This document shows, one piece after another, positions 2,194-30,146 of a DNA stretch of 64,000 nt. The stretch spans positions 296,464 to 360,463 of the forward strand of contig CAKOHZ010000002.1 in NCBI GenBank assembly GCA_934086315.1, read 5' to 3'. This DNA comes from an uncultured Bacilli bacterium. GTDB taxonomy: Bacteria > Bacillota_I > Bacilli_A > RF39 > UBA660. The translations under genes and the position numbers were made by a program. How positions within the stretch are numbered: position 1 is the stretch's first letter; each line of letters starts with the position of its first letter. The notes beneath the pieces were generated by a model that saw nothing but the letters and a program-made list of their open reading frames with translations, did no database searches and was not told where the DNA came from.

Positions 2194-3588
2194 ATGGATA
2201 TAATAAGTAAACTAAAATCTAAAAAAGAATATATGCCAGATCTTCAATTAAAAGAAGTTTCTTTTGGTTTAAATAAAATTTATATCGTTAATATTCAAAC
2301 TGTATCTTCAAGTACACTTACTAATAAATTTATTCTTGATTATATTTCTAAACGAAGTTTACTTAAAAATGAACTTATAACCTCTCTTAAAAAAGATATT
2401 ATGAATTATATACCATCTATTAGTTTTATAGATATTGATTCTAAAGATGTAATGGAATACTTATTTAATGGTTTTAGTATTATTATTTATCATGATGAAT
2501 GTATAGCACTAGAAACAAGAGCTAATATTGATAGAGGTGTTAATGAACCATCTAGTGAACCTACTATTAAAGGACCGAAAGATGCTTTTAATGAAAACTA
2601 TAACACTAATATAGGTCTAGTTAGAAAAAGAATTAAAGATGAAAACCTTTATATGAAAGAATTAACACTAGGTACAAGAACTAAAACTAAAGTAAGCATT
2701 CTTTATATGAATGATATAGTTGATAAAGAATTACTTGAATGCACTATAAATAAAATAAGTAATATAACAAGTGATAAAGTACTAAATACATACTATATAA
2801 AAAGTCTTATTAGTGGTGAAAATAAATCATCATTTCCATCTATTAAATCAACTGAAAAACCAGATAGTATAGCTAAAGGTCTTACAGAAGGTAAAATATG
2901 TATAATATCAGAAAACTCATGTAATGCTTTAATTATACCTACATTCTTTATAGATTACTTTCATAATGATGAAGACATTTATCAAAAAAGTTTATATGTT
3001 GAATTCGTAAAATTCATAAGAATAATTGCATTATTTATAACTATATTTGCCCCATCTATATACCTTGCTATTATTACTTATGATCAACAAATTCTTCCGA
3101 CTGATTTACTTATAAACTTTTCTCTTCAAAGAGCAAGTGTACCTTTTCCAGCCCTCATTGAAGCATTCAGTTTAATGTTTACTTTTGAACTTCTTTATGA
3201 AGGAGACGCTCTTACCCCATCATCAAGAGGAACATCTCTTTCAATATTAGGTGCTTTAGTTTTAGGTGACGCAGCAGTAAGTGCAGGAATAGTATCACCT
3301 ATTATGGTTATAGTAGTAGCTGTAACAGCAATTTCATCAATATTCTTTGTTTACTATGATTTTCAATCATTCATAAGACTCTATAGATATAGTTTAATGG
3401 TATTATCTTCAATATTTGGAATTATCGGAGTACTATTTGGTTTCATATTTATAATAACTAATCTATGTAGTATTAAATCATTCGGAAAACCATTTATGTA
3501 TCCAATAAGTCCAAAACTAAATATAAAAGGAAGAAAAAAACTAATTAAAAGAGGACTATTACCTCAAAATAGTAATAAAGGAGAATAA
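2194..3588 (+). CDS. spore germination protein, GerA-family A subunit
   Basis: 464 aa. Soluble N-domain plus C-terminal multi-TM region typical of GerAA/GerKA. Stop overlaps the next start (ATAATG). Confidence 0.8.
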   Translation: MDIISKLKSKKEYMPDLQLKEVSFGLNKIYIVNIQTVSSSTLTNKFILDYISKRSLLKNELITSLKKDIMNYIPSISFIDIDSKDVMEYLFNGFSIIIYHDECIALETRANIDRGVNEPSSEPTIKGPKDAFNENYNTNIGLVRKRIKDENLYMKELTLGTRTKTKVSILYMNDIVDKELLECTINKISNITSDKVLNTYYIKSLISGENKSSFPSIKSTEKPDSIAKGLTEGKICIISENSCNALIIPTFFIDYFHNDEDIYQKSLYVEFVKFIRIIALFITIFAPSIYLAIITYDQQILPTDLLINFSLQRASVPFPALIEAFSLMFTFELLYEGDALTPSSRGTSLSILGALVLGDAAVSAGIVSPIMVIVVAVTAISSIFFVYYDFQSFIRLYRYSLMVLSSIFGIIGVLFGFIFIITNLCSIKSFGKPFMYPISPKLNIKGRKKLIKRGLLPQNSNKGE

Positions 3589-10290: not shown

Positions 10291-12408
10291 TTATTGATTT
10301 GAAAAGTTTTCCATCCATTCACTATAAGGTGTTACTTTTTCATAATCACTTAAATGTCTAACTTTTAAATTAACTTGTGATTTATAATACTTATCAAATA
10401 GTTTTTTCTTTTTCTTACAAGTTTCTTCATCTAATGTTTTAGGTACATTATTTTCAATATAATATTTCTTACTATAAGTTTTATTAAAGTAATAGAAATT
10501 AGATTTATCGTCTACTAAACTTGTTACAATTTTACTAGTCATTTTATGATGAATATGACCATATTCACCTTCTGGATTATGAGTTACTATTTTATCCCAA
10601 TTTTTAAGTTTTATTATATTATTAAGATCACTTGTAATTGAACTATACTCTTTTTCCCAATCTGACTTTTTACCATCAACTAAATCTGGATATCCAAGTG
10701 TTATATATTCATCATCAAAATAACCCATCATATGTTTAAATTCTTTTAATCTTGTTTCACTAACACCACAAGTAATACAAACTACAACATAATCATCTTT
10801 CATAAGTTCAGTACCACCAAATAATAAATCATCATCTGGATGAGCAACTACCATTAGATTTTTATATTTATAATCTTCTGTAAATAATAATTTATATCTA
10901 ATATCATTTGGTTCTAAAACTTTTACATCAGCTTTAGTATCAAAGCCATAGAAATCTAAAAATCTCTTATCCCATGTATCACTTACAGGACTATTCTTCC
11001 ATACGAAATTATAAAATCTAGTTTTTTTAATATAAATAGGATTCATATTTGCTTCTACTTGTCTTTTAACTATTTCATATCTTTCATTGTTACTTACATA
11101 TATACTATAATAAATGTATAAATATGATGAAAGAACTATAACAAGTATAACTAGTAAAGCCCTAGTAATATATCCATTTTTATCTTGTATTAATAAATTA
11201 TAAAGTTCACTAGCCATTAATATATACATAACTAAAGCTGGTAAACTACATCTTGATCCAACTGGAGTTAAAACTAATAATGGCCCTAATATTATAACTA
11301 TACTAACCATATAGAATATCAATCTATAACCAATGGTTCTATCATAATATTTACTTTTATCAAAGAATACTAATATTACTATTAATAATAGTGACAAGCA
11401 ATAAAATGCAGTCGCAAACCCAGTAAAATAATGACTAGTACCAGTAATTATTTTAAAATCAAACTCAGTTCCTAACATTAAGAATACACTATAGAATATA
11501 CTAACTAAATTTAATAGTTGTAAACTAACTTTTTTCCATTTAACAACTTTATTATTAACAAGAAATTTATAACTTAAAACTAACATAAATGCACTAACTA
11601 CAAAGTTAATAACTAAATTACGAGAAAATGCATTAGTTTGTATTTTATTGAAATAATTTCTAGCCATTGTAACAATAATTGATTGTTTAGTTGTTACTGT
11701 TCTATAAAAGTCGTCACCTTTCACTACATGTAAATAAGCACCATTAGTAAACATAATTATAGATCCAACTATTACACCAGCAAAATATATTAAATAACTT
11801 TTAGGAATCTTTTTATATCTAATATATGAATAAATACAAAGTACTACACATAATGCTAATAAATATGTAGTAATATGTTCCATAAATAATGTACTACAAA
11901 CACCTAATATAAATAATAAGACTAAATTATACCATTTTTCTTTAAAGTCTATTTTCTTTAATGCATCCTTAATATATGCAATAAATATTAATACTAATAA
12001 CATATTAAATGAATAATTAATAAATCCACTAGTATTAACAATAGTTTCTCTAAATACAAATTTATTAATTAAGAATAACATTAATATAGAGAACACCATA
12101 ATACCATTATTATTTTTATTAACTATTTTCTTTATTAAATAACCAATACCAAAATATGTAATAGTCATTAATAAAGTTTTAAAAATATTACTTCTAGTTA
12201 ACAATATAACAAGTAAATTACCTAGATATCTACCATTATAATCTTTAAACCATATATCTAATCTCTCTAAACCTGTTTTACTTCCCCAAGCCCAATCATC
12301 ATTAGAATAAGGAAAGAAATAAGTAAGAACAAATAAGAATACAAATAAAAATGTATAAAGTAAATATGTCTTCCAATTCTTTTTAATATTTTGTTTTAAT
12401 TTTTTCAT
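10291..12408 (-). CDS. polytopic membrane protein (about 14 TM, O-antigen polymerase/ligase-like region) fused to a C-terminal PIG-L/LmbE-family deacetylase domain
   Basis: C-terminal VVAHPDDDLLFGG plus HHKMTS histidines are the LmbE/PIG-L zinc-deacetylase signature. N-terminal 500 aa are continuous hydrophobic helices. RBS GAGGAG lies 5 nt upstream. Confidence 0.7.
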   Translation of the reverse strand: MKKLKQNIKKNWKTYLLYTFLFVFLFVLTYFFPYSNDDWAWGSKTGLERLDIWFKDYNGRYLGNLLVILLTRSNIFKTLLMTITYFGIGYLIKKIVNKNNNGIMVFSILMLFLINKFVFRETIVNTSGFINYSFNMLLVLIFIAYIKDALKKIDFKEKWYNLVLLFILGVCSTLFMEHITTYLLALCVVLCIYSYIRYKKIPKSYLIYFAGVIVGSIIMFTNGAYLHVVKGDDFYRTVTTKQSIIVTMARNYFNKIQTNAFSRNLVINFVVSAFMLVLSYKFLVNNKVVKWKKVSLQLLNLVSIFYSVFLMLGTEFDFKIITGTSHYFTGFATAFYCLSLLLIVILVFFDKSKYYDRTIGYRLIFYMVSIVIILGPLLVLTPVGSRCSLPALVMYILMASELYNLLIQDKNGYITRALLVILVIVLSSYLYIYYSIYVSNNERYEIVKRQVEANMNPIYIKKTRFYNFVWKNSPVSDTWDKRFLDFYGFDTKADVKVLEPNDIRYKLLFTEDYKYKNLMVVAHPDDDLLFGGTELMKDDYVVVCITCGVSETRLKEFKHMMGYFDDEYITLGYPDLVDGKKSDWEKEYSSITSDLNNIIKLKNWDKIVTHNPEGEYGHIHHKMTSKIVTSLVDDKSNFYYFNKTYSKKYYIENNVPKTLDEETCKKKKKLFDKYYKSQVNLKVRHLSDYEKVTPYSEWMENFSNQ

Positions 12409-13549
12409 TTTTACTCCTCACACACAATTCCACAAAATCTATTATATCACTTGTATAACTCTTTTCAAATTCTTTTATATATTTTTTTCTAAAAACATTT
12501 AATTTATTCATATCATAATTATCATTATCAATTTCATTATATAATTCTTCTAAATTTAAACATATTTTACCAGGCATTTCTTTATCATATTTTAAATAAA
12601 AATCCCTATCATTAACATAATCCTTTTTATCATAAGCATAAAACATCATTGGTTTACCTATAATAGCTACCTCATATATAACAGCTGAATAATCACTTAT
12701 AACTTTATCAGATACAAATACCATCTCATAAGTATTAAAACTTTTATCAAATATAGCTTCTTTATTATCAAAAGTATACTTAGTAAGTGGATGTAACTTA
12801 ACTATTAAGTTATATTTTTTATAATTAAAATTATCTATGAATTCTTTTATATATTTATAATCATAATCTCCATCTCTAAAAGTTGGACAATATAATATAT
12901 TTTTCTTTTTATTTTTAAGTTTTGGATACTTACTATATATTTTATCACTAACCTTTTTAATGTTATCTTTATCAACCATTAAATCTAATCTAGGAAGTGG
13001 ATATACTCTAAATTTGCTTTCATCTTGACCAAATGCTTCACTGAAAAATTTTATACAATATTGACTACTAGCAAATATATAATCATAATTATTATGCATA
13101 TTCATAACACTAGCAAGTTTTTTATTATCAACATATTTAACTCTTTCATTATTATTGTTTATTACACTTAGTCCAAACTTCTTAAACGCACCCATCGCAT
13201 GCCACATTTGTATAACAGTTAAACTCTTTTTATGTTTACAATTACTTATAACGATACAATAAGAATCAAGTATAACTACTTTACTAGTTGCTATAAAGTA
13301 CATTTGTTTAAACATATGGAATATATACTTTATCTTATTAAGAAGACCAGAATCTAATGTCTTACATAAATATACTACATCATATTCTGGCATTTCTTTT
13401 TTTATTTTCTTACCAAGTAAAACAAAATCAACATTAATATTATTTGATTGTCTACTTATAAAAGTAATTCTATTTTTAGTTTTAAATAATTTAAATATAG
13501 AATATATAATATTAAGAATAAACTTAAATATTTTAATTAGTATTATCAT
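12383..13549 (-). CDS. CDP-glycerol/ribitol-phosphate polyol-phosphotransferase (TagF/TarL family)
   Basis: 388 aa. Glyphos_transf-like C-domain motifs QMWHAMGAFK, PTFRDG and LHPLT are shared with the paralog immediately upstream. Confidence 0.7.
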   Translation of the reverse strand: MIILIKIFKFILNIIYSIFKLFKTKNRITFISRQSNNINVDFVLLGKKIKKEMPEYDVVYLCKTLDSGLLNKIKYIFHMFKQMYFIATSKVVILDSYCIVISNCKHKKSLTVIQMWHAMGAFKKFGLSVINNNNERVKYVDNKKLASVMNMHNNYDYIFASSQYCIKFFSEAFGQDESKFRVYPLPRLDLMVDKDNIKKVSDKIYSKYPKLKNKKKNILYCPTFRDGDYDYKYIKEFIDNFNYKKYNLIVKLHPLTKYTFDNKEAIFDKSFNTYEMVFVSDKVISDYSAVIYEVAIIGKPMMFYAYDKKDYVNDRDFYLKYDKEMPGKICLNLEELYNEIDNDNYDMNKLNVFRKKYIKEFEKSYTSDIIDFVELCVRSKNEKIKTKY

Positions 13550-14696
13550 CTTTTTCCCCTGTTATTAATTTCTTAACTACTCTTTCAGTACTCTTTCCAT
13601 CACAAGCTCCACAAAAGAAATCGAAGAATTCTTTAAGTTTCTTTTTATCAACTTTTCCATTCTTAATTGAATTAATAAGTTCTTTATTATTATGAGCTAC
13701 ATCTCCGTAAGTATATTTAGAAAATGGATAATAAAAGCCTCTACTGCCATCATAATCTTTATAATCAGGTGTATAGAATATAACTGGTTTATTAAAGAAT
13801 GAATATTCAAATATAACAGAACTATAATCAGTAATTAATATATCTGTTATAAATAATAGATCATTTATTTCTCTCTCGCCACTTAAATCATAATAAAAGT
13901 CATCATTATCAAAATCTATATCTGGCATTTCTTTAATAAATGGATGCATTTTTACTAAGAATACATAATCTTTAGAAAAGTTCTTTTTTATTAAATCAAA
14001 GTCTATCAAACTATAATCATAGTAAGCACTCTTTTGACCTTGTCCTCTAAATGTAGGTGCGAATAATATAACTTTTTTATTTTTAAATTGAGGATATTTT
14101 TTATATAAAGTATTTCTTATATTCTTTTTATATTCATCACTGAAAAAAATATCTGTTCTAGGAACACCATATGGATGAACCTTTTCAATATCTATGCCAA
14201 ATGCTTCTGCATAATTTCCTCTTATATTTTCAGAACTAACTATTGTATCAGTATAATTTTTATGTGTTAAACTAGTATTATTATAACCATTTTTACTCTT
14301 ATTTCTACTATAACCTACTGTTTTAAAAGCACCCATTGCATGCCATACTTGAATTAGTTTAGCATTTTCTCTTATTTTTAATGGATAAATCAATGGATAA
14401 AAATCATCAACAAGAATATATTTTGATCTTGCTATATCTCTAACTAAACTTATTTTTTCTTTAAATTCTCTTCTTGTTTTTAATGATTTTTTTAAATGAC
14501 TCTTAAGCTTATACTCTGGATTATTTTCTTTCAAATAGTTATAAATAAACTCAAAATTTCCAGAGATATGGTCTCTGGAATCTGATAGAAATAATACTTG
14601 TTTTTCATCTATTTCATATTTTTTAACATAATAATTATAAATGATTATACAAAATAGTCTCTTAACTTTTTGTAAAAAACCTTTTATATATTTCAT
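13533..14696 (-). CDS. CDP-glycerol/ribitol-phosphate polyol-phosphotransferase (TagB/TagF family), paralog
   Basis: QVWHAMGAFK, APTFRG and MHPF motifs. 17-nt overlap with the downstream paralog. Confidence 0.7.
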   Translation of the reverse strand: MKYIKGFLQKVKRLFCIIIYNYYVKKYEIDEKQVLFLSDSRDHISGNFEFIYNYLKENNPEYKLKSHLKKSLKTRREFKEKISLVRDIARSKYILVDDFYPLIYPLKIRENAKLIQVWHAMGAFKTVGYSRNKSKNGYNNTSLTHKNYTDTIVSSENIRGNYAEAFGIDIEKVHPYGVPRTDIFFSDEYKKNIRNTLYKKYPQFKNKKVILFAPTFRGQGQKSAYYDYSLIDFDLIKKNFSKDYVFLVKMHPFIKEMPDIDFDNDDFYYDLSGEREINDLLFITDILITDYSSVIFEYSFFNKPVIFYTPDYKDYDGSRGFYYPFSKYTYGDVAHNNKELINSIKNGKVDKKKLKEFFDFFCGACDGKSTERVVKKLITGEKDDNTN

Positions 14697-14697
14697 A

Positions 14698-15717
14698 TTA
14701 AATCTCCCATTTCATAATAGTTTTAAAATCATTATTCAAATCTTGTTGGAATGCAGAATGTATATCATTAACAGAATGAACTTCTACTTCACTTGATATT
14801 ATAGTACTTAGATAATCAGCAACATCTTCATTTTCTTCTATAAATTTAATTGATGCATCAAAATCTTCATATCCACTTCTACTATTACCAAGTAATGATA
14901 ATCCTTTTTCAAGAATCATTCTTGTATTTAATGGAACATTGTTTTCACTAACACCCATTAATGCAATGCTTCCTTGTGGATTAATTATATCTATAATTTG
15001 ATTTATAGCAAGTTCTGCTTTAGTTCCACCAACACATTCAAATGCATGATCGACTGTAACACCTTCAGGTATTTCAGCAACTTGATATATTTCATCAGCA
15101 AATTGGAAATAATGAAGCTTCTCATATCTATTACCAAAAACTATAATTTTAGCATTAGGGAATGTTTTCTTAAGAACAAGTGCAGTAACAAATCCAACAC
15201 TTCCATCTCCCCATACACCTATAGTTTGTCTTTTCATATGGCTATATCCTTCAAAATGTTCAAGTGCATTCATAGCAACACTTAATAATTCTAAAAGAAC
15301 AGCTATTCTATCTTCAATCTTAGTATATTTTATAATTCTAGATCTTTCGATATCTACAATACTTTGCATGAATCCATCATAACCACTAGATTTAAATAAA
15401 CTACTTCTTAAATAATTTTCTTTAATAATTGAATCTGTTTCTCTAGGAGTATTTGGTATCATAACAACACTATCACCTGGCTTAAATTCACCTTTAGGAT
15501 CAAATACTACCTTACCAACACATTCATGTATTAGAGCCATTGGAAGTTTTTTAGCAAGTACTTCTGGAGCTCTTCTTCCTTGATAATATCTTTGATCAGC
15601 TGCACAAATAGAAAGATAAGATGGTCTTACAAGTACATCATCACTTGGAAGAGGTAAATCTATAAAATCAGTTCTAATTTGTTTAGGAGAACAAAGTCTA
15701 TAAGATTGTGCTATCAT
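14698..15717 (-). CDS. zinc-type alcohol dehydrogenase, TarJ-like (ribulose-5-phosphate reductase candidate)
   Basis: MDR-family architecture. GVWGDGSVGFVTA is a Rossmann GxGxxG variant. Coupled to the tarI-like gene (stop and start overlap by 4 nt). Confidence 0.65.
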   Translation of the reverse strand: MIAQSYRLCSPKQIRTDFIDLPLPSDDVLVRPSYLSICAADQRYYQGRRAPEVLAKKLPMALIHECVGKVVFDPKGEFKPGDSVVMIPNTPRETDSIIKENYLRSSLFKSSGYDGFMQSIVDIERSRIIKYTKIEDRIAVLLELLSVAMNALEHFEGYSHMKRQTIGVWGDGSVGFVTALVLKKTFPNAKIIVFGNRYEKLHYFQFADEIYQVAEIPEGVTVDHAFECVGGTKAELAINQIIDIINPQGSIALMGVSENNVPLNTRMILEKGLSLLGNSRSGYEDFDASIKFIEENEDVADYLSTIISSEVEVHSVNDIHSAFQQDLNNDFKTIMKWEI

Positions 15718-16427
15718 TTTTCATCCTTTCCCATTAAAATAGCACGAGCTATCTTAAGATCATATAATGTTGTTAATTTAATATTGTACACTTCGCCATC
15801 AACTAATCCAACATTTTCACCCTTTAATGAGAAAATTTTACAACCATCAGTTAATATTTCTTTTTCTTTCTTAGTTAAAGAATCAAATAATTCCATTAAC
15901 TTCTTAATATTAAATGTTTGAGGTGTTTGTCCTTGATAACATTCTTTTCTATCAGGAATTTCTGTTATTACCTTTCCATCTTTAGAATATACAATAGTAT
16001 CTGTTGCAGGAATTACTGTATCAACAGCATCATATTTTTTAGCAAGTTTAATGTTATCATCAAGTATTCTTTGATTAACAAATGGTCTAACTGCATCATG
16101 AGTAACAATAATATCTTTATCAGTTAATCCATATTTCTCTTCAATTAATTTACAACCATTTATAATAGTATCATTTCTTGTAGCACCACCAGCTGTTACT
16201 TCTACTCTTTCTGTGTCAATATTATATTTTTCAAGCAAGTCTTCAGCATAACTCACCCATTCTTTAGGACAACAAACAACTATTTTTGAAAATGATTGAT
16301 TAATTAAGAATTGCTCAATAGTATGAATAATAATTGGTCTATCTCCTAACATTAAAAACTGTTTAGGCATTTCAGTATTGCCCATTCTTGTACCGGAACC
16401 ACCGGCTAATATTTCTCCGTAAATCAT
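15714..16427 (-). CDS. IspD/TarI-family cytidylyltransferase (CDP-ribitol synthase candidate)
   Basis: MIYGEILAGGSGTRMG is the IspD/TarI N-terminal motif. Start placed at the internal ATG (16427), which has a GGAGGT RBS 5 nt upstream, rather than the longer ORF-track start at 16511. Confidence 0.75.
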   Translation of the reverse strand: MIYGEILAGGSGTRMGNTEMPKQFLMLGDRPIIIHTIEQFLINQSFSKIVVCCPKEWVSYAEDLLEKYNIDTERVEVTAGGATRNDTIINGCKLIEEKYGLTDKDIIVTHDAVRPFVNQRILDDNIKLAKKYDAVDTVIPATDTIVYSKDGKVITEIPDRKECYQGQTPQTFNIKKLMELFDSLTKKEKEILTDGCKIFSLKGENVGLVDGEVYNIKLTTLYDLKIARAILMGKDEK

Positions 16428-16529
16428 TTTTACCTCCATATTTATAAAAATTTCATAAAATACATATCTACGTATAACCAAATTATAACATATAAAATAA
16501 AACAAACGCAAACATTTACATAAACTTTA

Positions 16530-17501
16530 CTATTCTTTATCTATTAAAAACTTTAGCATCTGCTCTTTATCTTTTTTACCCTCTATAATATCATGTATTA
16601 AATTTATTATTGGCATTTTTACCTTTTTACGTCTAACTAGCTTATGTATAGATTTTAATGTATACATACCTTCTACAGTGGTATTCTTTAAATATAGATC
16701 AATTTCTTCTTTAGATGCACCACTACCTATTAAGTACCCAAAACTAAAGTTTCTTGAATTTTTACTAGTACAAGTCATAAGAATATCACCAAATCCAGCA
16801 AAAGATAAAATTGATTTTTTCTTTCCACCTAATGCTTTTATAAGTTCTTTTATATCGTTCATACTTTCTGTTAAGAATAATGCACGTGTTGAATCTGTTA
16901 CACCCATTCCTTCTAACATACCACTTGCAATAGCCATGACATTCTTAATACTGCCACATATTTCTATACCAGTAATGTCTCTAGTTCTTCTAAATTTAGT
17001 TGTAGAGTTTTCAAAACATTTACGAATAACCATTTCAGTCTTATGACTTTTAGTTGCCAAACTAAATCCTATAGGAGCATCTTTAATCATATCAACAGCA
17101 AATGTAGGACCTGATATAACAGCAATACTATTTTTTAGATAGTTAGAAAACACATCATTTAAAAATAAACATGTATTTTGCTGAATACCTTTAGTAGCAA
17201 TTAAAACTGGTTGTTTCTTCTTTATATATTTAGATAATTCTATTGTTACATCTTCAAAAGCAAACGCTGGGATTGCCATAACTATTAAGTCTTTTCCTTC
17301 TACTACTTTTTTTAAATCAGTTGAAAATACTAAACTTTCAGGTATTTTATAATTATTTAATTTTTTACTAACTCTTTTACCACTTAATTCATTTTTCTCA
17401 TCCTCATTATGAGTCCATACTTCTGTGTAAACTTTATTATTTACTAAAATATGTGAAAGTGCTAAACCAAAAGCACCAGCACCAAGTACACCTACTTTCA
17501 T
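16530..17501 (-). CDS. gpsA: NAD(P)H-dependent glycerol-3-phosphate dehydrogenase
   Basis: MKVGVLGAGAFG Rossmann motif, ISGPTFAVDM and C-terminal KN..AIA.G motifs. 323 aa. Confidence 0.8.
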   Translation of the reverse strand: MKVGVLGAGAFGLALSHILVNNKVYTEVWTHNEDEKNELSGKRVSKKLNNYKIPESLVFSTDLKKVVEGKDLIVMAIPAFAFEDVTIELSKYIKKKQPVLIATKGIQQNTCLFLNDVFSNYLKNSIAVISGPTFAVDMIKDAPIGFSLATKSHKTEMVIRKCFENSTTKFRRTRDITGIEICGSIKNVMAIASGMLEGMGVTDSTRALFLTESMNDIKELIKALGGKKKSILSFAGFGDILMTCTSKNSRNFSFGYLIGSGASKEEIDLYLKNTTVEGMYTLKSIHKLVRRKKVKMPIINLIHDIIEGKKDKEQMLKFLIDKE

Positions 17502-17553
17502 TCATTCACCTCTAAAGATAATTATATCATAGTAAATAATGTTTTAAAACATA

Positions 17554-17577
17554 CAAAAAAGTTCAATCACTTGAACT
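17554..17577 (-). terminator. intrinsic terminator after the tagO-like gene
   Basis: aagttcaa-tcac-ttgaactt hairpin with a flanking A6 on the plus strand (T-run on the minus transcript). Confidence 0.5.
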
Positions 17578-17585
17578 TTTATAAT

Positions 17586-18680
17586 TTATTTTTTCTTAGA
17601 TTTACCTTTACTTTTTGACCAATCAAATACTATATTAGTTTTAAGTACAAAATATAATACGATAAATATTAATATAACATAACAGCCAGCAACTATTTTC
17701 TTATCTCCAAGTACATAGAATATAGTTGTTACTGAAAATAAAATATTAATTGCATAAATCACTAATAATGAACTCTTTTTAGAAAAATGTTTCAATAATT
17801 GATGATGCAAATGTTCTTTATCAGCATGATCTATACTTTGTCCTTTTAATTTTCTTCTTATAATAGCGAACAAAGTATCCATAATTGGAATAGCTAATAT
17901 TAATAATGGAATTATTAAAGATGTTAATGTTGTTGTTTTAAAACCAAGTAAGAATATTACAGATATCATAAATCCTAAAAATGTACTACCTGCATCTCCT
18001 TGATATATTCTAGCAGGTGGAAAATTATGTACCAAATATCCAAGTGTTGAGCCAAGCATTATCAAAGATAAAATTATATCTAAACCACCAAATTTATTAA
18101 GTATAAACCCAATTACAGCAATGGTTAAAAAATATATTGATGAAATACCAGCACATAATCCATCTAGTCCATCTATTAAATTAATAGCATTTATTGTAGC
18201 TACTATTATCAACATTGAAATAAGTTCAGGCAAAAAAGGAATAGAACCAAATTTAATAGTTATACCAAACAATGTAATCTTAGTAAGTTCAAGTCCACCA
18301 TAGAAAACTACTATAGCAGCAACTATTAATTGAACTAATACTTTATATTTGTTAGGCATTGGCGTCTCACTCTTAGTCATATCATCAAAAAGACCTAAAA
18401 GCATAATCAAAAATGAACCAATAAGTACAGCAATCATTAAATCATTTTTAGGAGCAAATAACATATATCCAAGCAAGAAAGCAAAGAAAATACCAAGACC
18501 TCCTAATAATGGAACAGGATGTTCTTGAATCTTTCTAGGATCATTAGGCACATCCAATATCTTTAAAAATATTGCCACCTTTTTCATTATTTGAACAAAT
18601 ATTAAAGATGCTAAAAAACATACAGAGACTATTATAAATATATTATGTCCATTAACACTAAAATCCATATTTTCACCCAC
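17586..18680 (-). CDS. glycosyltransferase family 4 polyprenyl-phosphate sugar-1-phosphate transferase (TagO/WecA/MraY-like)
   Basis: 364 aa, about 10 TM. NAINLIDGLDGL motif and a DDxxD-like FDDMT motif. Confidence 0.8.
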   Translation of the reverse strand: MGENMDFSVNGHNIFIIVSVCFLASLIFVQIMKKVAIFLKILDVPNDPRKIQEHPVPLLGGLGIFFAFLLGYMLFAPKNDLMIAVLIGSFLIMLLGLFDDMTKSETPMPNKYKVLVQLIVAAIVVFYGGLELTKITLFGITIKFGSIPFLPELISMLIIVATINAINLIDGLDGLCAGISSIYFLTIAVIGFILNKFGGLDIILSLIMLGSTLGYLVHNFPPARIYQGDAGSTFLGFMISVIFLLGFKTTTLTSLIIPLLILAIPIMDTLFAIIRRKLKGQSIDHADKEHLHHQLLKHFSKKSSLLVIYAINILFSVTTIFYVLGDKKIVAGCYVILIFIVLYFVLKTNIVFDWSKSKGKSKKK

Positions 18681-18802: not shown

Positions 18803-19879
18803 ATGGAAAAAAATGAAAAAATGAGTTTACAATCAATATTATTACTTATTTCAGCATTGGTAATGATACTAGCAGGAGGTTACATCTATAAATTAACTAA
18901 AAACAACAACAAGTTAAATAACAACGTTGAAAAGTTAGAAAACAAAACAAATATAGAATTACAAAAAACACTTAATAATTTTTTAGAAATGGATAAATCA
19001 GCATATGAAGGAACACTTTTAGAATATTTAAATATTGGGTATGACAAATCTAAAGACAAAGTTATTGAGACAAATAATGAAGATGATTCATATGAATATG
19101 TACTAACTAATATTAAATTTGATGACTATAAAAAAGCTATGTTAAATTATGTTACTGAAGATTTCTTTGAAAGAGAATACACAAATAACATAAATTACAT
19201 TAAAAATGATGATGGATTTATAAAAACATTAAAACCAGAAGAAAATGATAATAAACTAAAATATATTGTAGATAACATTATTGAAAAAGATAAACTATCA
19301 TATTTAGTATCAATTAGAAAAATAAGTGATTACAATGTTGAAAAAACAATGAGAAACTTTACACTTGTAAAAGTAGAAGGAAAATTAGTTATTAATACAT
19401 ACTCAGGAAGTAAAACAACACAATATGAAATTAAAGAACCAACTATAGATGAAATAACTAGTATATACAAAAAATATTTAGAAATAGACTGTGAATCTCA
19501 TACAGATGGTATACTTAATTTCTTAAATATTGGTTATGATGAAAATAAAGACAAATTTGACTCTAATCTAGAAATGGTTACAACAAATGTTAATTTTATA
19601 GAATATAAAAATGCAATGTTAAATTATGTTTCTGAAAACCTTTTCACAAAAGAATATACTAAAAATATAGGAATTTTTGAAAATAAAAATGGTAAAATAG
19701 TAAAAGGACAAGGTGGTGGCGAATGTCCAAATATAAAAATAAACAAAATTACAAAAACTGGTACTCTTGCCTACACTGCAGATGTTATAGAAAGCTTTAA
19801 TGAAGAAAATGCCAATAAAACATATAAATTCACACTTAAAAACTATAATGGAAAATTAGTCATAGATACAAATAAATAA
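18803..19879 (+). CDS. membrane-anchored extracellular protein composed of two copies of a ~150-aa module
   Basis: N-terminal TM ILLLISALVMILAGGYIY. The two module copies share the segments LEYLNIGYDKSKDK...MLNYVTEDFFEREYTNNI and LNFLNIGYDENKDK...MLNYVSENLFTKEYTKNI. Confidence 0.6.
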   Translation: MEKNEKMSLQSILLLISALVMILAGGYIYKLTKNNNKLNNNVEKLENKTNIELQKTLNNFLEMDKSAYEGTLLEYLNIGYDKSKDKVIETNNEDDSYEYVLTNIKFDDYKKAMLNYVTEDFFEREYTNNINYIKNDDGFIKTLKPEENDNKLKYIVDNIIEKDKLSYLVSIRKISDYNVEKTMRNFTLVKVEGKLVINTYSGSKTTQYEIKEPTIDEITSIYKKYLEIDCESHTDGILNFLNIGYDENKDKFDSNLEMVTTNVNFIEYKNAMLNYVSENLFTKEYTKNIGIFENKNGKIVKGQGGGECPNIKINKITKTGTLAYTADVIESFNEENANKTYKFTLKNYNGKLVIDTNK

Positions 19880-20016: not shown

Positions 20017-22173
20017 ATGAAGAAAAAATATTTATTATTTATATGCTTATTAGTTTTTCTATGTACACCATTTAAGATAAATGCAGCCTTTGATGCAGAA
20101 ATAAATGGTAATACAGTTAGAATTAGAACAGGTCCTGGCACTAATAATTCAGCTATCGTAACAGTTAATGCAGGTACATCTATTAAAGTTGTTGATAAAA
20201 CTTTATATGAAGGAACTGGTTGTGACTCTAAATGGCTAAAAATAATTCATAATGATAAAGAAGGATATGTTTGTAGTGAATATGTTACTTTTATAAATAC
20301 AAGTTATGCCGGAATAAATGTTATTGATTGGACAGCAAGAGTTAGTGGAAATAATGTTTCTGTTAGAAAAACTGCTTCATCTAGTGGAACGTTAATTGAA
20401 ACATTAACACTTGGAGCTAACGTAACAATACTAGGTACTAGTGGAAACTTTTATAAAATTAAATATTATGGTGAAAAAGAAGGATACATAAGTAAGGATT
20501 ATGTTATTAAAAAAAGTGATGTCACAGCTACTGATGAAGAATATGCTAAAGTATTAAAAGACAAAGGTTTCCCAGATAGTTATATTCCATATTTAACATA
20601 CTTACATAAAAAATATCCAAACTGGGAATTTAATGCTGATAAAAATAATAGAAGTTTTACTACTTCAGTTGATAAAGAATCTGGTAAATGTTACATGCAA
20701 ACAAAAAATGATAACTATAGAACCTCTTCTACTCCAGCCGAAGGAAGCTCTTGGTTTAGAGTTAATGCTGGTGTTATAGCATTCTATATGGATCCTAGAA
20801 ACTGGCTTTTAGAAGATAGAATATTTATGTTTGAAAAACTAGATTACGATAAAAATCTTGAAAAAGAATATCCAACAATAATTAAATCAATATTTGGTAG
20901 TGGAAAACTAGGAGACGATAAATACACTATTCCAATGTTCAACGCCGCCAAATCTTTAGGAATTAGTCCTATACACGTAGCAAGTAGAATTAGATTAGAA
21001 GTTGGAGCTTCAGGAAGTGGCTCAACCGATGGCGGAGAATTCACATGGAAAGGAAAAAAATATAGTGGATACTATAACTTCTTCAATATAGGTGCTTACG
21101 AAACAACAATAGATGGTGTTAAATATTCAGCAGTTACAAGAGGCCTTGCCTACGCTGCCAAACTTATTGACAGAAATGGTGAAAAATGGGATAACATTGA
21201 AACTGCTATAAGAGAAGGAAGTAGTACACTTGCTAATAATTATGTAACTAAAGGTCAACAAACTATCTTCTATCAAAAATTTAACATTGGACCTAACGCA
21301 GGAAGCCCTTATGCTCATCAATACATGACAAATATACAAGCCCCAGCAATCGAAGGAGCATCTACTTATAACTCTTATAAAAAAGGAGATTTACTAAACT
21401 CTAAAATAATATTTGATATACCAGTATATAAAGATGGAACACTTCCAGCATACACTTCTCTACCAAAAAGTGGAGACACTAACAATAACTTAAAATCATT
21501 AAGTGTAGTTGGTTATTCATTAACCCCATCATTTGATGAAGATATACTTACTTATGACTCATACATTCCAAAAGAAACAACAACTGTAACAATAGATGCT
21601 AAAACAAGTAGTGATAAAGCAACTATATCAGGAACTGGAGAAATGAAAATCGAAGATGATGAAACAGATGTAACAATAACAGTAACAAGTGAAGCTGGCG
21701 AAGAAAAGAAATATGTTGTTACAATTCATAGAGTTGATGATCCTACTACAGTAAGTATGGTGCTTGAAAAAAGTAATCTGAATATAAAAGATAATTACAT
21801 AGTTAATATTAAACCTGAAACAAAAGCAAGTGTTATCAAGTCAGCACTAATTACTTCAGGAGCAAGAAACGTTATAATTAAAAACTCTAAAGGAAACGAA
21901 ATAAAAGATTCAGATATTTTAGGAACAGAATACAAAGTTACAATATCTACAGTATTAGAATCTAAAACATTTACTCTAGTAGTTAGAGGTGACACTTCAG
22001 GTGATGGCAAAGTAGATATCCTAGATTTATTACAAGTTAGAAAACATATAAATGGAGATAATACTTTAAATAATGCTAGATTTTTAGCAGGAGACACATC
22101 AGGTGATAACAAAATAACTATTCTTGACTTACTACAAGTTAGAAAACATATAAATGGAGATAAAAAATTATAG
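20017..22173 (+). CDS. secreted cell-wall protein: 2x SH3b, central putative peptidoglycan/glycan hydrolase-like domain, 2x cadherin-like beta-sandwich, C-terminal type-I dockerin
   Basis: Signal peptide. SH3b repeats (NGNTVRIRTGPGTNNSAI..., ARVSGNNVSVRKTASSSG...). Cadherin-like segments (LKSLSVVGYSLTPSFDEDILTYDSYIP). Two 22-aa calcium-binding dockerin repeats (DTSGDGKVDILDLLQVRKHINGD, DTSGDNKITILDLLQVRKHINGD). The hydrolase family is not resolved by eye. Confidence 0.7.
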   Translation: MKKKYLLFICLLVFLCTPFKINAAFDAEINGNTVRIRTGPGTNNSAIVTVNAGTSIKVVDKTLYEGTGCDSKWLKIIHNDKEGYVCSEYVTFINTSYAGINVIDWTARVSGNNVSVRKTASSSGTLIETLTLGANVTILGTSGNFYKIKYYGEKEGYISKDYVIKKSDVTATDEEYAKVLKDKGFPDSYIPYLTYLHKKYPNWEFNADKNNRSFTTSVDKESGKCYMQTKNDNYRTSSTPAEGSSWFRVNAGVIAFYMDPRNWLLEDRIFMFEKLDYDKNLEKEYPTIIKSIFGSGKLGDDKYTIPMFNAAKSLGISPIHVASRIRLEVGASGSGSTDGGEFTWKGKKYSGYYNFFNIGAYETTIDGVKYSAVTRGLAYAAKLIDRNGEKWDNIETAIREGSSTLANNYVTKGQQTIFYQKFNIGPNAGSPYAHQYMTNIQAPAIEGASTYNSYKKGDLLNSKIIFDIPVYKDGTLPAYTSLPKSGDTNNNLKSLSVVGYSLTPSFDEDILTYDSYIPKETTTVTIDAKTSSDKATISGTGEMKIEDDETDVTITVTSEAGEEKKYVVTIHRVDDPTTVSMVLEKSNLNIKDNYIVNIKPETKASVIKSALITSGARNVIIKNSKGNEIKDSDILGTEYKVTISTVLESKTFTLVVRGDTSGDGKVDILDLLQVRKHINGDNTLNNARFLAGDTSGDNKITILDLLQVRKHINGDKKL

Positions 22174-22181
22174 GAGGATTT

Positions 22182-23831
22182 ATGAAAAAAATATTAAAAA
22201 CACTATCTATACTAATAGTATCCCTACTCTTTACTATAACAGTAGATGCAGCTAGTGCAAATATAAAAGTTACAACAAGTAAAAGCCAAGTTGTAGTAGG
22301 AAATACATTTACAGTAACAACTAAAATATCAGGTTCAGATCTTGGCTCATGGCAATGGACACTAAATTATGATACTAAAAAATTTAAATTAGTAAGTGGT
22401 GGAAACGTTTTCTTCTTTAGTGAATCAGGAGAAAATCAAAGAACTAAAACATGGACACTTAAAGCAATAGCTAAAGGAAGCGGAACAGTTTCAGTTAAAG
22501 CAGCTGGAGCATTTGCATATAAAGATGAATCAACAATAAAAGTTACAACAAACTCTAAAACAGTCAAAGTAATAACACAAGCTGAATTAGAAGCAAGTTA
22601 TTCAAAAGACAATAATCTTAAAAGTCTAAGTGTTGAAGGCTTAACTTTAGAACCTGCATTTAATAAAGATACAACTGACTACAAAGTAACAGCTGAAAGT
22701 AACACAACAGAAATAAAAATTAATGCAACTAAATCAGACTCAAAAGCAGACTTATCAGGAACAGGAACATTTAAAGTAACCGAAGGAGAAAACAAATTTA
22801 CAATAACTGTTGAAGCAGAAAATGGTTCAATAAAAAAATATAACATAACTGTAAATGTTACAGATCCAAATCCTATAACAGCAAAAATAAATGATAAAGA
22901 TTATACTGTTGTTAAAAGAGAAAGTAATCTTACAAAACCAGAAGATTATGAAAAAACTGAAATAACTATTAACGATCAAAAAGTTCCAGCATTCTATAAT
23001 GAAATAAATAAATTCACACTTGTAGGACTTAAAGATGAAAATGGTGATGTTGCCCTATTCTTATATGATGAAAAAACAAATACATTTAGTGAATATAAAG
23101 AAATAAAACTAGATCAAATAAAACTATATCCTTTAACAATTGATAAAGAAATAGATGGATATAAATTAAGTAAAATTAAAATAAATGATGTTGAATTTGA
23201 TGCATTAATATTAGATAATAGTGAATACGCGGTAATTCACGCACAAAATATGAATAATGGTTCAAATGATTATTACACATATGACACTAAAACAAATACA
23301 GTTGTTAGATACACAGATGAAACATTAAAGCCATTAGAAAATAAACTAAAAATATATGAAAAAATAATTATCTTATTATGTGGAGAAACAGTATTAGTAT
23401 TCTTTATTCTATTATGCATACTTATTGCTAAAATAAGAAATAATAAAAAAAGAAAGAAAATGCGCAAAATGATGCTAAAACAAAAAGAACTTGAAGAAAA
23501 AGCAAAAGAAGAAAATATTCAAGAAGAAGTTATAGCAAAACAAAAAAAACTTGAAGAAGAACATGAAGTACAAGAAGAAAAAGAAATTATTGAAGAAGAA
23601 AAAACAGATGATAATAAAATATTAACAACAGATGAATACGAAAAAATATGCATGAAATTTGTTAACAACGAAGAATTAACTGAAGAAGAATTAAAAGAAC
23701 TTAAAAGAAGTACACCAGAAAAAATGAAACAAATGGAAGAAACGAGACAAAAAGAAAAAGAATCAGTCAAAAACAACGAAGAAACTAAATCTAAAAAGAA
23801 TAAAAAAGAAAAAAAGAATAGAAAGAAATAA
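22182..23831 (+). CDS. bitopic membrane protein: signal peptide, cohesin-like domain, cadherin-like beta-sandwich, TM, Lys/Glu-rich cytoplasmic tail
   Basis: The N-domain IKVTTSKSQVVVGNTFTVTTKISGSDLGSWQWTLNYDTKKFKLVSGG fits the cohesin pattern (VKV...A.GDTV.V.V...G....D..L.YD...L). NLKSLSVEGLTLEPAFNKDTTDYKV is cadherin-like. TM ILLCGETVLVFFILLCILIA, followed by a ~130-aa K/E-rich tail. Confidence 0.6.
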   Translation: MKKILKTLSILIVSLLFTITVDAASANIKVTTSKSQVVVGNTFTVTTKISGSDLGSWQWTLNYDTKKFKLVSGGNVFFFSESGENQRTKTWTLKAIAKGSGTVSVKAAGAFAYKDESTIKVTTNSKTVKVITQAELEASYSKDNNLKSLSVEGLTLEPAFNKDTTDYKVTAESNTTEIKINATKSDSKADLSGTGTFKVTEGENKFTITVEAENGSIKKYNITVNVTDPNPITAKINDKDYTVVKRESNLTKPEDYEKTEITINDQKVPAFYNEINKFTLVGLKDENGDVALFLYDEKTNTFSEYKEIKLDQIKLYPLTIDKEIDGYKLSKIKINDVEFDALILDNSEYAVIHAQNMNNGSNDYYTYDTKTNTVVRYTDETLKPLENKLKIYEKIIILLCGETVLVFFILLCILIAKIRNNKKRKKMRKMMLKQKELEEKAKEENIQEEVIAKQKKLEEEHEVQEEKEIIEEEKTDDNKILTTDEYEKICMKFVNNEELTEEELKELKRSTPEKMKQMEETRQKEKESVKNNEETKSKKNKKEKKNRKK

Positions 23832-25803: not shown

Positions 25804-25805
25804 CA

Positions 25806-25842
25806 AAAGAGTTCAAATTTTTGAACTCTTTTTCTTTTTTAT
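25806..25842. terminator. bidirectional intrinsic terminator between the LCP gene and sufB
   Basis: agagttcaa-atttt-ttgaactct 9-bp stem with T-runs on both sides. Confidence 0.6.
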
Positions 25843-27601: not shown

Positions 27602-28810
27602 CTATATCACCACATCATATAATTTATCACTATTTTTAAGTGCTTCTACTAACTTATCTACTTCTTCAAATGTATTATAAATATAAAAACTAATTCTACA
27701 AGTATTTTTAATACCTAAATCATCTTTTAATATTTTAGCACAATGATTACCTGCTCTTATAGCTATACCATATGTATTTAGATATACTGATGTATCTTGA
27801 GCAAACACATCTTTTATATTAAATGCTACTATTCCACTTTCACTATTCTTATTATATATAATTATATTATCCATATCTTTAATTTTAGATAATAAGTACT
27901 TTTTAAGCTCTACTTCATGTTTATGAATATTATCTACTCCGATACTAGTTATATAGTTAATTGCTTCTTTAAGGCCTATTACTTCAGCTATGGGAGGTGT
28001 TCCTGCTTCAAGATTAGTTGGAAAACTTTTTATTACATAACATTTATCACTTTCAAAACTTTCATTCATGCCTCCTCCATACTTAAGAGGTACTAAATCT
28101 TTTAAATATTCACTTTTGCCATAAAGAACACCTACTCCAGTAGGGCCACACATCTTATGACCACTAAATGCTAAAAATGATACATTACTCTTCTCTACAT
28201 CTATATTTATATGAGATACACTTTGAGCAGCATCAACAACAAAATATAAATTATTCTCTTTAGCTATCTTACCAATACTTTCTATATCACGCTTGTCCCC
28301 TATTACATTAGATACATGAGCTATACTTATTACTTTAGTATTCTTTGTAATAGACTTTTTAACATTCTCTAGAGTTACTTCATAATTCTCATCAAGTGGT
28401 ATATATTTAACAGTACATTTACCCATCTTTTCAAGAACAAACCAAGGAAGTACATTAGATGCATGTTCACTCTTAGTAATTAATACTTCATCATCTTTAT
28501 TAAGTATGTTTTTAAAGTATCCAAAAACTATTGTATTCATGGAATCAGTAGTTCCACTAGTAAACACTATTTCATCACTACTTTTAGCATGAATAAAATT
28601 CTTTACTACTTCTCTAGTTTCATCATACTCTTTGTTAGTACGCATCGCATTATCATAGTCACCTCTATGTATATTAGAAGTATACTTACTATAATACTCC
28701 ACCATCTTATCTATAACACATTTAGGTTTTAAAGAAGTTGCACTATTATCAAAATATATTAATTTATCATTTAATGCTGGAAAGTCTTCTCTATTCATAA
28801 CACACCTCAA
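27602..28810 (-). CDS. sufS: cysteine desulfurase, SufS class
   Basis: PLP-lysine motif SGHKMCGPTGVGVLYGK and active-site loop HHANI/RAGNHCA. 402 aa. Confidence 0.85.
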   Translation of the reverse strand: MRCVMNREDFPALNDKLIYFDNSATSLKPKCVIDKMVEYYSKYTSNIHRGDYDNAMRTNKEYDETREVVKNFIHAKSSDEIVFTSGTTDSMNTIVFGYFKNILNKDDEVLITKSEHASNVLPWFVLEKMGKCTVKYIPLDENYEVTLENVKKSITKNTKVISIAHVSNVIGDKRDIESIGKIAKENNLYFVVDAAQSVSHINIDVEKSNVSFLAFSGHKMCGPTGVGVLYGKSEYLKDLVPLKYGGGMNESFESDKCYVIKSFPTNLEAGTPPIAEVIGLKEAINYITSIGVDNIHKHEVELKKYLLSKIKDMDNIIIYNKNSESGIVAFNIKDVFAQDTSVYLNTYGIAIRAGNHCAKILKDDLGIKNTCRISFYIYNTFEEVDKLVEALKNSDKLYDVVI

Positions 28811-29406
28811 ATCTTATCTATTTCTTTTTCTAAAGTTTCAATTATTTCTTTATTTTCACAATTATTTACTAAGAAACTTTTAATTAACAAGTCATAACTT
28901 ACTTTCTCACTAATACCTCTACTCATTAAATAGAATAATATTTCATCTTTAAATTTGCCAATATAAGCAGAGTGAGAACTTACTACATCATAGTTATCTA
29001 TTAATAATTTAGGAAGTATGGTACTCTTACCATCTTTAATATTAAGTATTTGATTCTTTTGATTACATTCACTCTTATCACTTTTATTTGGTACATACCC
29101 TGTAATATCAAAATCTAATTCATTATCTTTAACATTTACTCCATGATTATATATATTACTTATAGTTTTACTACTATTATGATTTACTACTATTTTATAT
29201 TTATGATCATCATAGTTAATAGTACTATAGTGATATTCTACTTCTGAATTTTCTCCATTTAAATTAACAATTATATCATTATCTATATTTATTCCATATT
29301 GATACACTACTAATTTAGAGTTCTCACTTACATTATAAATTCTACTTTGATTAGTTTTATCTACTATATATAATTCTTTATTTTCTTTTATATCTACTGT
29401 TTCCAT
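28807..29406 (-). CDS. sufD: short SufD-like protein (C-terminal beta-helix only)
   Basis: 199 aa. The C-terminus DEILFYLMSRGISEKVSYDLLIKSFL parallels the SufB C-terminus. Position between sufC and sufS, with a 4-nt overlap with sufS. Confidence 0.65.
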   Translation of the reverse strand: METVDIKENKELYIVDKTNQSRIYNVSENSKLVVYQYGINIDNDIIVNLNGENSEVEYHYSTINYDDHKYKIVVNHNSSKTISNIYNHGVNVKDNELDFDITGYVPNKSDKSECNQKNQILNIKDGKSTILPKLLIDNYDVVSSHSAYIGKFKDEILFYLMSRGISEKVSYDLLIKSFLVNNCENKEIIETLEKEIDKI

Positions 29407-29408
29407 GA

Positions 29409-30146
29409 CTATCCTCTTTCATGATATCCATGTTTCTCTGTATCAAATGCTAAATCCATATTACCTGTTTTAACAATCTTACCATTATTCATAATATGAA
29501 CATAATCTGGATTAATATATTCAAGTATTCTAGGATAATGTGTAATTATAAGTACTGAAGTATCTTTATTTTCTTCTCTATATTTATTAATATTTTCACA
29601 TACTATTCTAAGACTATCTACATCAAGTCCACTATCTATTTCATCAAGTATTATAAATTTAGGTTTTAACATCTTAATTTGTAATACTTCATTCTTCTTC
29701 TTTTCACCACCAGAAAAACCTTTATTCAAATGACGATATAACATATCTTTATCAAATTCTAAATCTTCTATTGATTTATTAACTTCATCAAGAAACTTAA
29801 AGTAATCTATATTTTCACCAGTTATTTCTCTACTAGCAGTCTTTAAAAATTCACTATTAGTAACACCATCCACTACTGTAGGATCTTGCATAGCCAAGAA
29901 TATTCCTTTTTTAGCTCTTTCGTTTACTTTTAGATTCCTAATACTTTCACCATTAAAAAGTATATCTCCATCTGTAAGTTCATATTTATAGTTACCCATT
30001 ATTACCTTAGATAATGTACTTTTACCAGTACCATTAGGCCCCATTATCGCATGTACTTCTCCATCTTTAATATCAAGAGAAAGTCCATCTATTATATGTT
30101 TATCTGAATCTTTAATTTTAACACTTATATTTTTAATCTCTAGCAT
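29409..30146 (-). CDS. sufC: Fe-S cluster assembly ATPase SufC
   Basis: Walker A GPNGTGKST, ABC signature FSGGEKKK and Walker B IILDEIDSGLD. Confidence 0.9.
   Translation of the reverse strand: MLEIKNISVKIKDSDKHIIDGLSLDIKDGEVHAIMGPNGTGKSTLSKVIMGNYKYELTDGDILFNGESIRNLKVNERAKKGIFLAMQDPTVVDGVTNSEFLKTASREITGENIDYFKFLDEVNKSIEDLEFDKDMLYRHLNKGFSGGEKKKNEVLQIKMLKPKFIILDEIDSGLDVDSLRIVCENINKYREENKDTSVLIITHYPRILEYINPDYVHIMNNGKIVKTGNMDLAFDTEKHGYHERG

Follow-up and report, generated by a model that had tools for sequence, protein, structure and literature searches.

A probable dockerin–cohesin pair that would tether a wall hydrolase to the membrane of an uncultured gut bacterium of the Bacilli

Gram-positive bacteria have to contain wall hydrolases that are potentially suicidal for the cell that makes them, and the known answers are binding to wall polymers or control of the FtsEX type. 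Whether there is a further answer is the question raised by a locus in a 64,000-nucleotide (nt) stretch of DNA from an uncultured Bacilli bacterium of the RF39/UBA660 lineage (contig CAKOHZ010000002.1, positions 296,464 to 360,463; hereafter the window, GC content ~26%). An earlier note, made from the letters alone, had read two adjacent plus-strand open reading frames as a wall hydrolase ending in a dockerin and a membrane protein beginning with a cohesin; both frames lie exactly where it placed them, at 20017..22173 (P1, 718 amino acids, aa) and 22182..23831 (P2, 549 aa). Our analysis indicates that P1 and P2 probably form a dedicated one-to-one, non-cellulosomal dockerin–cohesin pair that tethers a wall hydrolase to the producer's own membrane. 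The pair occurs in an abundant uncultured human-gut lineage (several related metagenome-assembled genomes are labelled human-gut, Hadza or HGUT). If the reading is true, wall hydrolases could also be kept in place by a plug and socket, through a membrane protein dedicated to the task.

P1 is predicted to be a secreted protein of modular build. Its signal peptide is followed by two SH3b domains (aa 32-95 and 112-166; 20110..20514), two stretches that match the Pfam SH3_3 model (PF08239, E 1.2e-22) as well as PDB entries 2kt8 and 2kyb, and then by a GH73-like N-acetylglucosaminidase domain (aa 176-480; 20542..21456). In phmmer searches of PDB sequences, aa 245-472 aligned to the S. aureus Atl glucosaminidase (6fxo, E 3.1e-8), and the middle of P1 also matched the AtlE glucosaminidase (4pi7, 2e-4). 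Since this similarity is present while the Pfam scan gave no match of Glucosaminidase on P1, we take P1 to be a divergent GH73 member and a putative peptidoglycan glucosaminidase. Its putative catalytic residue, E328 (SR...E), aligns with the Glu of LLETG and does not vary among orthologs, even at ~33% identity; the GQ.T....KF and Y..QY motifs of the domain are likewise invariant across distant orthologs. The reading of P1 as an SH3b hydrolase is supported by two SH3_3 matches and a domain similar to Atl and AtlE. Downstream lie a cadherin-like beta-sandwich (aa 493-572; 21493..21732; PF12733, 3.7e-7) and, directly N-terminal to the dockerin, a 'mid' domain (aa 576-652; 21742..21972) for which no family was matched in the Pfam scan. 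The placement of the latter is reminiscent of X-modules in type II/III X-dockerin dyads.

The dockerin itself (aa 658-713; 21988..22155) is the complete two-repeat module that had been noted at the end of P1. Dockerin_1 (PF00404) scored 42.4 bits against a cut-off of 22.9 (E 8.3e-11), with positions 2-57 of the 57 in the model covered, and PDB entries 8x39, 5lxv and 2vn5 were matched. Each repeat consists of a calcium loop and a helix (DTSGDGKVDILDLLQVRKHING and DTSGDNKITILDLLQVRKHING), and both loops are present, at 21991-22026 and 22093-22128. Within the loops (DTSGDGKVDILD and DTSGDNKITILD) the pattern is D1, S3, D5, D/T9, D12, so that the liganding positions are plausible by sequence, with Ser at position 3, where Asn or Asp is usual; folding and binding would presumably depend on Ca2+. 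As in cellulosomal type I dockerins, the two 22-residue repeats are near-identical, which gives the module a symmetry that would permit a dual binding mode. Positions 10/11 are Ile-Leu in P1, unlike the Ser-Thr generally known from the cellulosomal type I.

The identity of the candidate partner domain was less obvious from routine annotation. P2 begins with a signal peptide, after which comes an N-terminal domain (N-domain) of 111 aa (aa 25-135; 22254..22586) that fits the cohesin proposed earlier. A Pfam scan of the full-length protein gave no Cohesin match at E<=1; the isolated N-domain reached 25.6 bits (PF00963, gathering cut-off 24.1, E 1.5e-5). Among the profiles suggested as a check, SH3_3, Dockerin_1 and Cadherin-like were matched directly, and Cohesin on the isolated N-domain only. 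The N-domains of 65 out of 70 relatives matched Cohesin in Pfam (best E 2.5e-10), and precomputed PF00963 annotations are found on relatives of P2 that are 33-47% identical to it. An exhaustive single-sequence phmmer search with the N-domain returned 226 clusters at 50% identity, nearly all of them proteins of ~430-500 aa in which the domain comes immediately after the signal peptide; the matches include classical scaffoldins bearing 4-9 Cohesin domains by Pfam.

A profile built from 70 diverse N-domains of the P2 family (A1) was compared with all PDB sequences. Cohesins occupied the top 21 places, the best match being the A. cellulolyticus ScaB dyad (4.7e-7); the C. perfringens NagJ cohesin was also among the matches (E 0.027), and none in this search were of the BatD type. 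AlphaFold2, run with the same profile, gave an all-beta model with a pLDDT of 95.3. Foldseek matched this model to cohesins of types I, II and III and to the Archaeoglobus non-cellulosomal cohesin with TMq of 0.66-0.74. The N-terminal half of the domain also bears the conserved G...YD beta-3 motif, as in cellulosomal type I cohesins. On the combined weight of the profile searches and the fold model, we regard the P2 N-domain as a compact, divergent cohesin homolog. P2-type proteins are named 'hypothetical' or 'cadherin-like' in databases: short divergent cohesins slip past routine annotation.

The 64-kb window contains a single dockerin and a single cohesin-like domain, which sit in neighbouring genes. 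The P2 ATG begins 9 bp after the P1 stop, as had been counted, which leaves a true spacer of 8 nt and not 9. To see how general this arrangement is, one can look at the 31 family loci recovered beyond the window (8 genome, 9 metagenome and 14 via divergent-homolog look-ups, with one mislabelled 'phage' contig). DNA directly upstream is retained in 27 of them, making 28 pairs with the window; contigs cut upstream (L011, L012 and L030) were left out of this count. A GH73...dockerin gene directly precedes the cohesin-TM (transmembrane) gene in all 28 pairs, 8-28 bp away, and N-terminal SH3b domains are usual, not universal, in these upstream genes. The pairing persists at 33-45% cohesin identity and amid rearranged neighbours, such as those of L014, where the LCP gene is on the opposite strand and upstream.

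Translation of the two genes is likely to be linked. The Shine-Dalgarno sequence of P2 (AGGAGG, 22172..22177, plus strand) overlaps the P1 stop codon (TAG, 22171-22173). A gap of 10 nt separates P2 from P3 (23842..25803, plus strand), a gene for an LCP-family glycopolymer-peptidoglycan ligase (Pfam LytR_cpsA_psr, 1.2e-35; also NCBIfam and synteny). Just 3′ of P3 comes a terminator-like hairpin (25805..25832, plus strand), the only one on this strand in the region. Because the ribosome-binding site overlaps the stop, the second gap is short and the hairpin follows only the LCP gene, P1, P2 and probably P3 would belong to one operon with translational coupling.

The dockerin and the cohesin vary together among close relatives. 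In a sliding-window comparison, L003, L004 and L005 are ~85-95% identical to the window along the locus except for two dips. The first covers the dockerin (~21970-22150) and the second the cohesin (~22300-22560), and the signal-peptide stretch that separates them is better kept. At least five dockerin–cohesin types can be told apart. Type A, that of the window, combines the dockerin helix LQVRKHINGD with the cohesin segments SWQW, VFFFSESGENQ and AAGAFAYKDES; type B combines RKHITGD with VWEW, IRHVSDFSDNI and AYGVYTKSE, and type C combines RLDITKE with VWEW, IMHVSDFSDNV and SYAAYTKSQ. Type C' has RLHIT in the dockerin helix and VRHVSDYSD in the cohesin, and in type D/E a dockerin with DIRMHIKQE, its second loop enlarged by an insertion of 9-12 aa, goes with a cohesin that has IMHVGDY(F)xDSxS. 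The two dockerin repeats change in concert between types. According to residue alignments of the close relatives, dockerin type equals cohesin type in 27/27 pairs. On a backbone resembling that of the window, P0036 carries a cohesin of type C; its partner dockerin was therefore predicted to be of type C, and was found to be so.

The same association was seen in Mantel tests on 17 non-redundant pairs. Dockerin distance correlated with cohesin distance (r=0.645, p=1e-4), and no correlation was seen between it and the distance of the backbone (r=0.19, p=0.20); controlling for the backbone left the association of dockerin and cohesin intact (partial r=0.65, p=1e-4). Among themselves, backbone modules correlate at 0.97-0.99, and no module diverges more than the dockerin and the cohesin. 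Some dockerins depart from the two-repeat layout. In L022 and L027, P1 is 691 aa long and has a single dockerin repeat (just upstream of position 3001 of those loci), while their cohesins are unchanged and of types A and B; this is consistent with a recombination deletion between near-identical repeats. In the type D/E loci L003, L004, L024, L025 and L029 the second calcium loop is degenerate and carries the insertion of 9-12 aa (GHVNSNKGNDRKVGSDDINILD), and L029 has no dockerin call in the precomputed Pfam annotation. Type D/E dockerins may thus be asymmetric, with a single binding mode.

Where the variation falls within the cohesin is also suggestive. The strongly variable positions are S56, Q58 and N62, residues 76-87 and residues 102-122 (variable patches at 22338-22367, 22407-22442 and 22485-22547). 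S56, Q58 and N62 alternate, and so would point to the same side of the strand that bears the G..W.....YD motif; by strand order, the three patches would fall on beta-3, beta-5/6 and beta-8. The dockerin-binding face of solved cohesins is made up of strands 8-3-6-5.

Nei-Gojobori estimates of nonsynonymous (dN) and synonymous (dS) divergence were used to compare evolution within and between types. Within type A, across its deepest split, between the window and L002 or L008 (dS ~1.1), dN/dS was 0.05 for the dockerin (dS 1.13) and 0.11-0.15 for the cohesin. Between types it was 0.38-0.54 and 0.22-0.40, respectively, compared to 0.01-0.26 for flanking modules; in the 'mid' domain both dN and dS were raised between types. 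These estimates point to purifying selection inside each type; the matched types occur within one species. Against the nearest strain, L028, the window is 97% identical at the nt level in the flanks, 87% in 'mid', 73% in the dockerin, 90% in the signal peptide and 80.5% in the cohesin. L028 and L005 are both of type C on different backbones, and their cassettes differ by a dN of 0.02-0.03 and a dS of 0.45-0.61. That the type C cassette had been acquired recently by horizontal transfer was rejected on account of this dS: low dN together with such dS marks the types as old alleles and not recent imports. Each type would then be conserved internally, and recombination of a contiguous cassette would have carried the types from one background to another.

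By its layout, P2 is a type I membrane protein. A cadherin-like beta-sandwich (aa 146-225; 22617..22856; PF12733, 8.3e-10) follows the N-domain; PF12733 matches on both proteins, and the modules of P1 and P2 are 42-45% identical to each other, in line with the shared modules noted before. The TM helix (aa 395-416; 23364..23429), read from the sequence and found at the same position across the family, is followed directly by KIRNNKKRKK, as expected from the positive-inside rule, and by a cytoplasmic low-complexity tail of 133 aa (23430..23828; 26% K, 25% E). The earlier description of P2 had these parts right (cadherin-like domain, TM helix and Lys/Glu-rich tail) and overlooked a membrane-proximal all-beta ectodomain of ~165 aa between the cadherin-like domain and the TM helix (aa 229-396; 22866..23369). 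AlphaFold2 models this region as beta-hairpin meanders with a pLDDT of 94.3, and it is kept family-wide with the motifs NPI, VPAF, LVGLKD..G and Y.YD...T.QRY. A PDB sequence search with it gave no match, and in Foldseek the top E-value was 0.07 with a TM-score of at most 0.22; the model may represent an undescribed fold.

Homology, fold, synteny and covariation are all in favour of a hydrolase held at the membrane by a cohesin, as first suggested in the earlier note, and from them we infer that P1 and P2 bind. In the proposed mechanism, P1, P2 and the LCP ligase would be co-translated from one operon within a wall-teichoic-acid locus. P1 would be secreted by the Sec route as a GH73-like glucosaminidase whose SH3b domains bind the wall, and its C-terminal dockerin would plug into the cohesin of P2, projected from the membrane by a spacer of roughly 260 aa made of the cadherin-like and the novel ~165-aa domains. 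With the dockerin seated in the cohesin, the hydrolase would stay at the producer's membrane at a fixed distance and would not diffuse away. Cleavage of glycan strands would be confined to the cell's own wall, during growth and remodelling or daughter-cell separation, and could proceed in step with teichoic-acid attachment. The dockerin, the cohesin and 'mid' would make up a cassette of ~0.8 kb, whose old matched types are shuffled by recombination between near-identical strains.

The genomic setting fits a role of this kind. Upstream of P1, on the minus strand, lies a ribitol-type wall-teichoic-acid cluster (10291-18680) with a TagO-like gene (Glycos_transf_4), two TagF-like genes (Glyphos_transf), a TarI-like cytidylyltransferase, a TarJ-like dehydrogenase, GpsA and a DUF6056 domain fused to a PIG-L deacetylase. 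Given this cluster, the lineage, sometimes labelled 'Mollicutes', clearly makes a wall with teichoic acids. In other family loci the pair adjoins LtaS, YfhO and GT2.

Several observations weigh against our interpretation, and most of them could be taken to favour a P2 N-domain that is a generic Ig-like spacer of the BatD/CARDB type and binds no dockerin; the genes would then be adjacent as both serve the envelope, and the P1 dockerin would bind a partner elsewhere in the genome or merely stabilise the protein through calcium. At 111 aa, the N-domain is ~30 aa shorter than cohesins, which are nine-stranded jelly-roll beta-sandwiches of ~140-170 aa, and of the 139 positions in the Cohesin model only 2-61, its first half, could be aligned to it. 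On the window domain, BatD (PF13584) scored marginally above Cohesin (27.0 vs 25.6 bits), and TRAP-beta, CLIPPER and CARDB folds gave Foldseek scores similar to those of cohesins for the model. Further cohesins or dockerins could exist elsewhere in the genome. Several of the 27 type-matched pairs are near-duplicates. The two modules lie ~100-600 bp apart, so that linkage alone could hold the types together and explain co-inheritance; in the comparison with L028 the diverged tract is indeed contiguous (~21740-22540), with dS raised throughout 'mid', dockerin, signal peptide and cohesin. Positive selection was not demonstrated either, as dN/dS is raised between types yet stays below 1. At the family level, though, the balance is different: BatD was matched by 43/70 relatives with a best E of 1.1e-7, weaker than the 65/70 and 2.5e-10 of Cohesin, the profile matches in PDB are cohesins, and phmmer reaches true scaffoldin cohesins. 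Also against a mere spacer, the pair is retained while other neighbours change, and the two modules that diverge most vary with one another independently of the backbone; that purifying selection is strong inside each type argues that both have a constrained, type-specific function. We therefore consider a non-binding spacer improbable.

Two other explanations accept that the modules bind and assign the complex a different purpose. P2 could be a regulator or inhibitor that gates or sequesters the hydrolase; in one version, the inside-out control suggested in the earlier note, the charged tail would transmit an intracellular signal. Gram-positive autolysins often come under the control of membrane partners, FtsEX-type systems being an example, the novel membrane-proximal ectodomain of P2 is conserved, and the TM helix and the long tail are kept at 98.9% nt identity in L028. 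Among most close relatives that are 80-92% identical elsewhere, by contrast, the tail is essentially unalignable, and P2-type proteins range from 471 to 549 aa (tail region compared in L001-L008). Across the family this hypervariable segment is 9-150 aa long, in the distant member L034 it is Asp-rich and not Lys/Glu-rich, and the Pfam scan matched no domain in it. With length, composition and alignability all shifting and no domain matched, a signalling function of the tail is unlikely, and the suggestion of control through it is not supported; nor did the sequences give a sign of an inhibitory contact with the GH73 domain. Regulation by P2 thus appears unlikely. The remaining alternative, an offensive 'lyticome' in which surface-displayed P1 lyses competing bacteria and not the producer's own wall, draws on the competitive role proposed for dockerin-bearing lysozymes and D-Ala-D-Ala carboxypeptidases of rumen metagenomes (PMC6487960) and on the concept itself (PMC6403190), and an arms race could underlie the polymorphism. 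It is hard to reconcile with the position of the pair among wall-biogenesis genes with which it is probably co-transcribed (LCP, and TagO-, TarIJ- and TagF-like genes here, LtaS and YfhO elsewhere). In addition, a membrane tether with an ectodomain of ~370 aa would put the enzyme within or beneath the producer's wall, and no immunity gene is evident at the locus. We regard this alternative as very unlikely.

As to the polymorphism, it is possible, though we are doubtful, that the cassette is balanced within the species, its specificity types exclude one another and each anchor captures only its own autolysin. If true, this would be a 'private tether' system with a logic like that of pherotypes or toxin-immunity alleles, and a rare instance of a housekeeping function of the envelope that is polymorphic in specificity between strains. 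The drivers may be a need to avoid binding hydrolases that neighbouring cells release, or phage or host pressure on the exposed surface. The matched types would then also offer a natural panel of orthogonal, compact (111-aa) cohesin–dockerin pairs for protein assembly.

Comparison with known systems helps to delimit what is new. The modules of P1 and P2 belong to the same two families as the cellulosomal type I pairs of C. thermocellum CipA and C. cellulolyticum CipC. Unlike in those systems, a single, shorter cohesin is found on a membrane protein, its single partner enzyme is encoded next door, and the substrate of the cargo would be peptidoglycan and not plant polysaccharide. There is no sign of a cellulosome or amylosome within the 64-kb window, where we found one cohesin, one dockerin, a peptidoglycan-hydrolase cargo and teichoic-acid, LCP and Suf neighbours. 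C. perfringens (NagJ, NagH and others) likewise uses cohesin–dockerin contacts outside cellulose degradation and is a gut Firmicute; there the modules join secreted glycosidases together, whereas in our pair one side is anchored as an integral part of the membrane and the other is an enzyme of the autolysin-type GH73 kind. Non-catalytic modules that position a wall enzyme, as with the GH73 domain of P1, are known from the S. aureus Atl repeats, the choline-binding repeats of pneumococcal LytB and SH3b or LysM domains. Such targeting systems bind wall polymers; P1 and P2 would add a protein–protein plug-and-socket to a membrane protein.

Dockerins on wall hydrolases have been noted before, in putative lysozymes and D-Ala-D-Ala carboxypeptidases of rumen metagenomes (PMC6487960), and the 'lyticome' idea was floated in a review (PMC6403190). 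A cellulosomal lysozyme with a dockerin is known from R. champanellensis (Morais 2016, as cited in PMC13463774). Like P1, these enzymes of cellulosome producers combine a peptidoglycan hydrolase with a dockerin; they join multi-enzyme scaffoldins in fibre degraders, whereas P1 and P2 appear as a 1:1 pair in a wall-biogenesis operon. The same 2026 study (PMC13463774) predicts single cohesins anchored by a C-terminal TM helix in Ruminococcus spp., the same anchoring as in P2. Those anchors are inferred to serve assemblies of the amylosome or cellulosome kind, which involve many dockerin proteins, in contrast to the one adjacent partner of P2; in the passages considered, neither a dedicated dockerin partner next door nor a wall hydrolase as cargo nor allelic types are described. 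In the full-text literature searched, we found no dedicated gene pair of a dockerin-autolysin and a cohesin-anchor, and no link of such a pair to teichoic-acid loci or to matched allelic types. The novelty first claimed for the pairing therefore holds for the dedicated two-gene pair and does not extend to dockerin-bearing hydrolases or TM-anchored single cohesins, which had already been reported; this suggests that the two-gene combination and its allelic types are the new part.

Downstream of the LCP gene P3 lies a suf operon. A weak match of the N-domain profile in the window, at 28810-29418 on the minus strand, falls inside a SufBD gene and was rejected as a chance match. With tblastn, the pair was also found in faecal contigs of a phage collection labelled 'UNVERIFIED Bacteriophage sp.' (MT836697.1, MT836518.1 and MT839502.1). 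Carriage of the pair by phage was rejected: MT836697, the longest of them and the contig of L034, bears LtaS, YfhO, GT2, ClpC and RadA and is thus bacterial chromosome. The P1 protein of this locus is without SH3b domains.

Just upstream of P1, on the plus strand, a gene at 18803-19879 encodes a protein of 358 aa with an N-terminal TM helix and an internal duplication of ~150 aa, for which no family match was obtained. Its product is just 51-54% identical where P1 and P2 are 80-90% identical. The place of this gene is taken by a GDSL lipase in L010, and in L013 two unannotated frames of ~200 aa lie upstream of P1.

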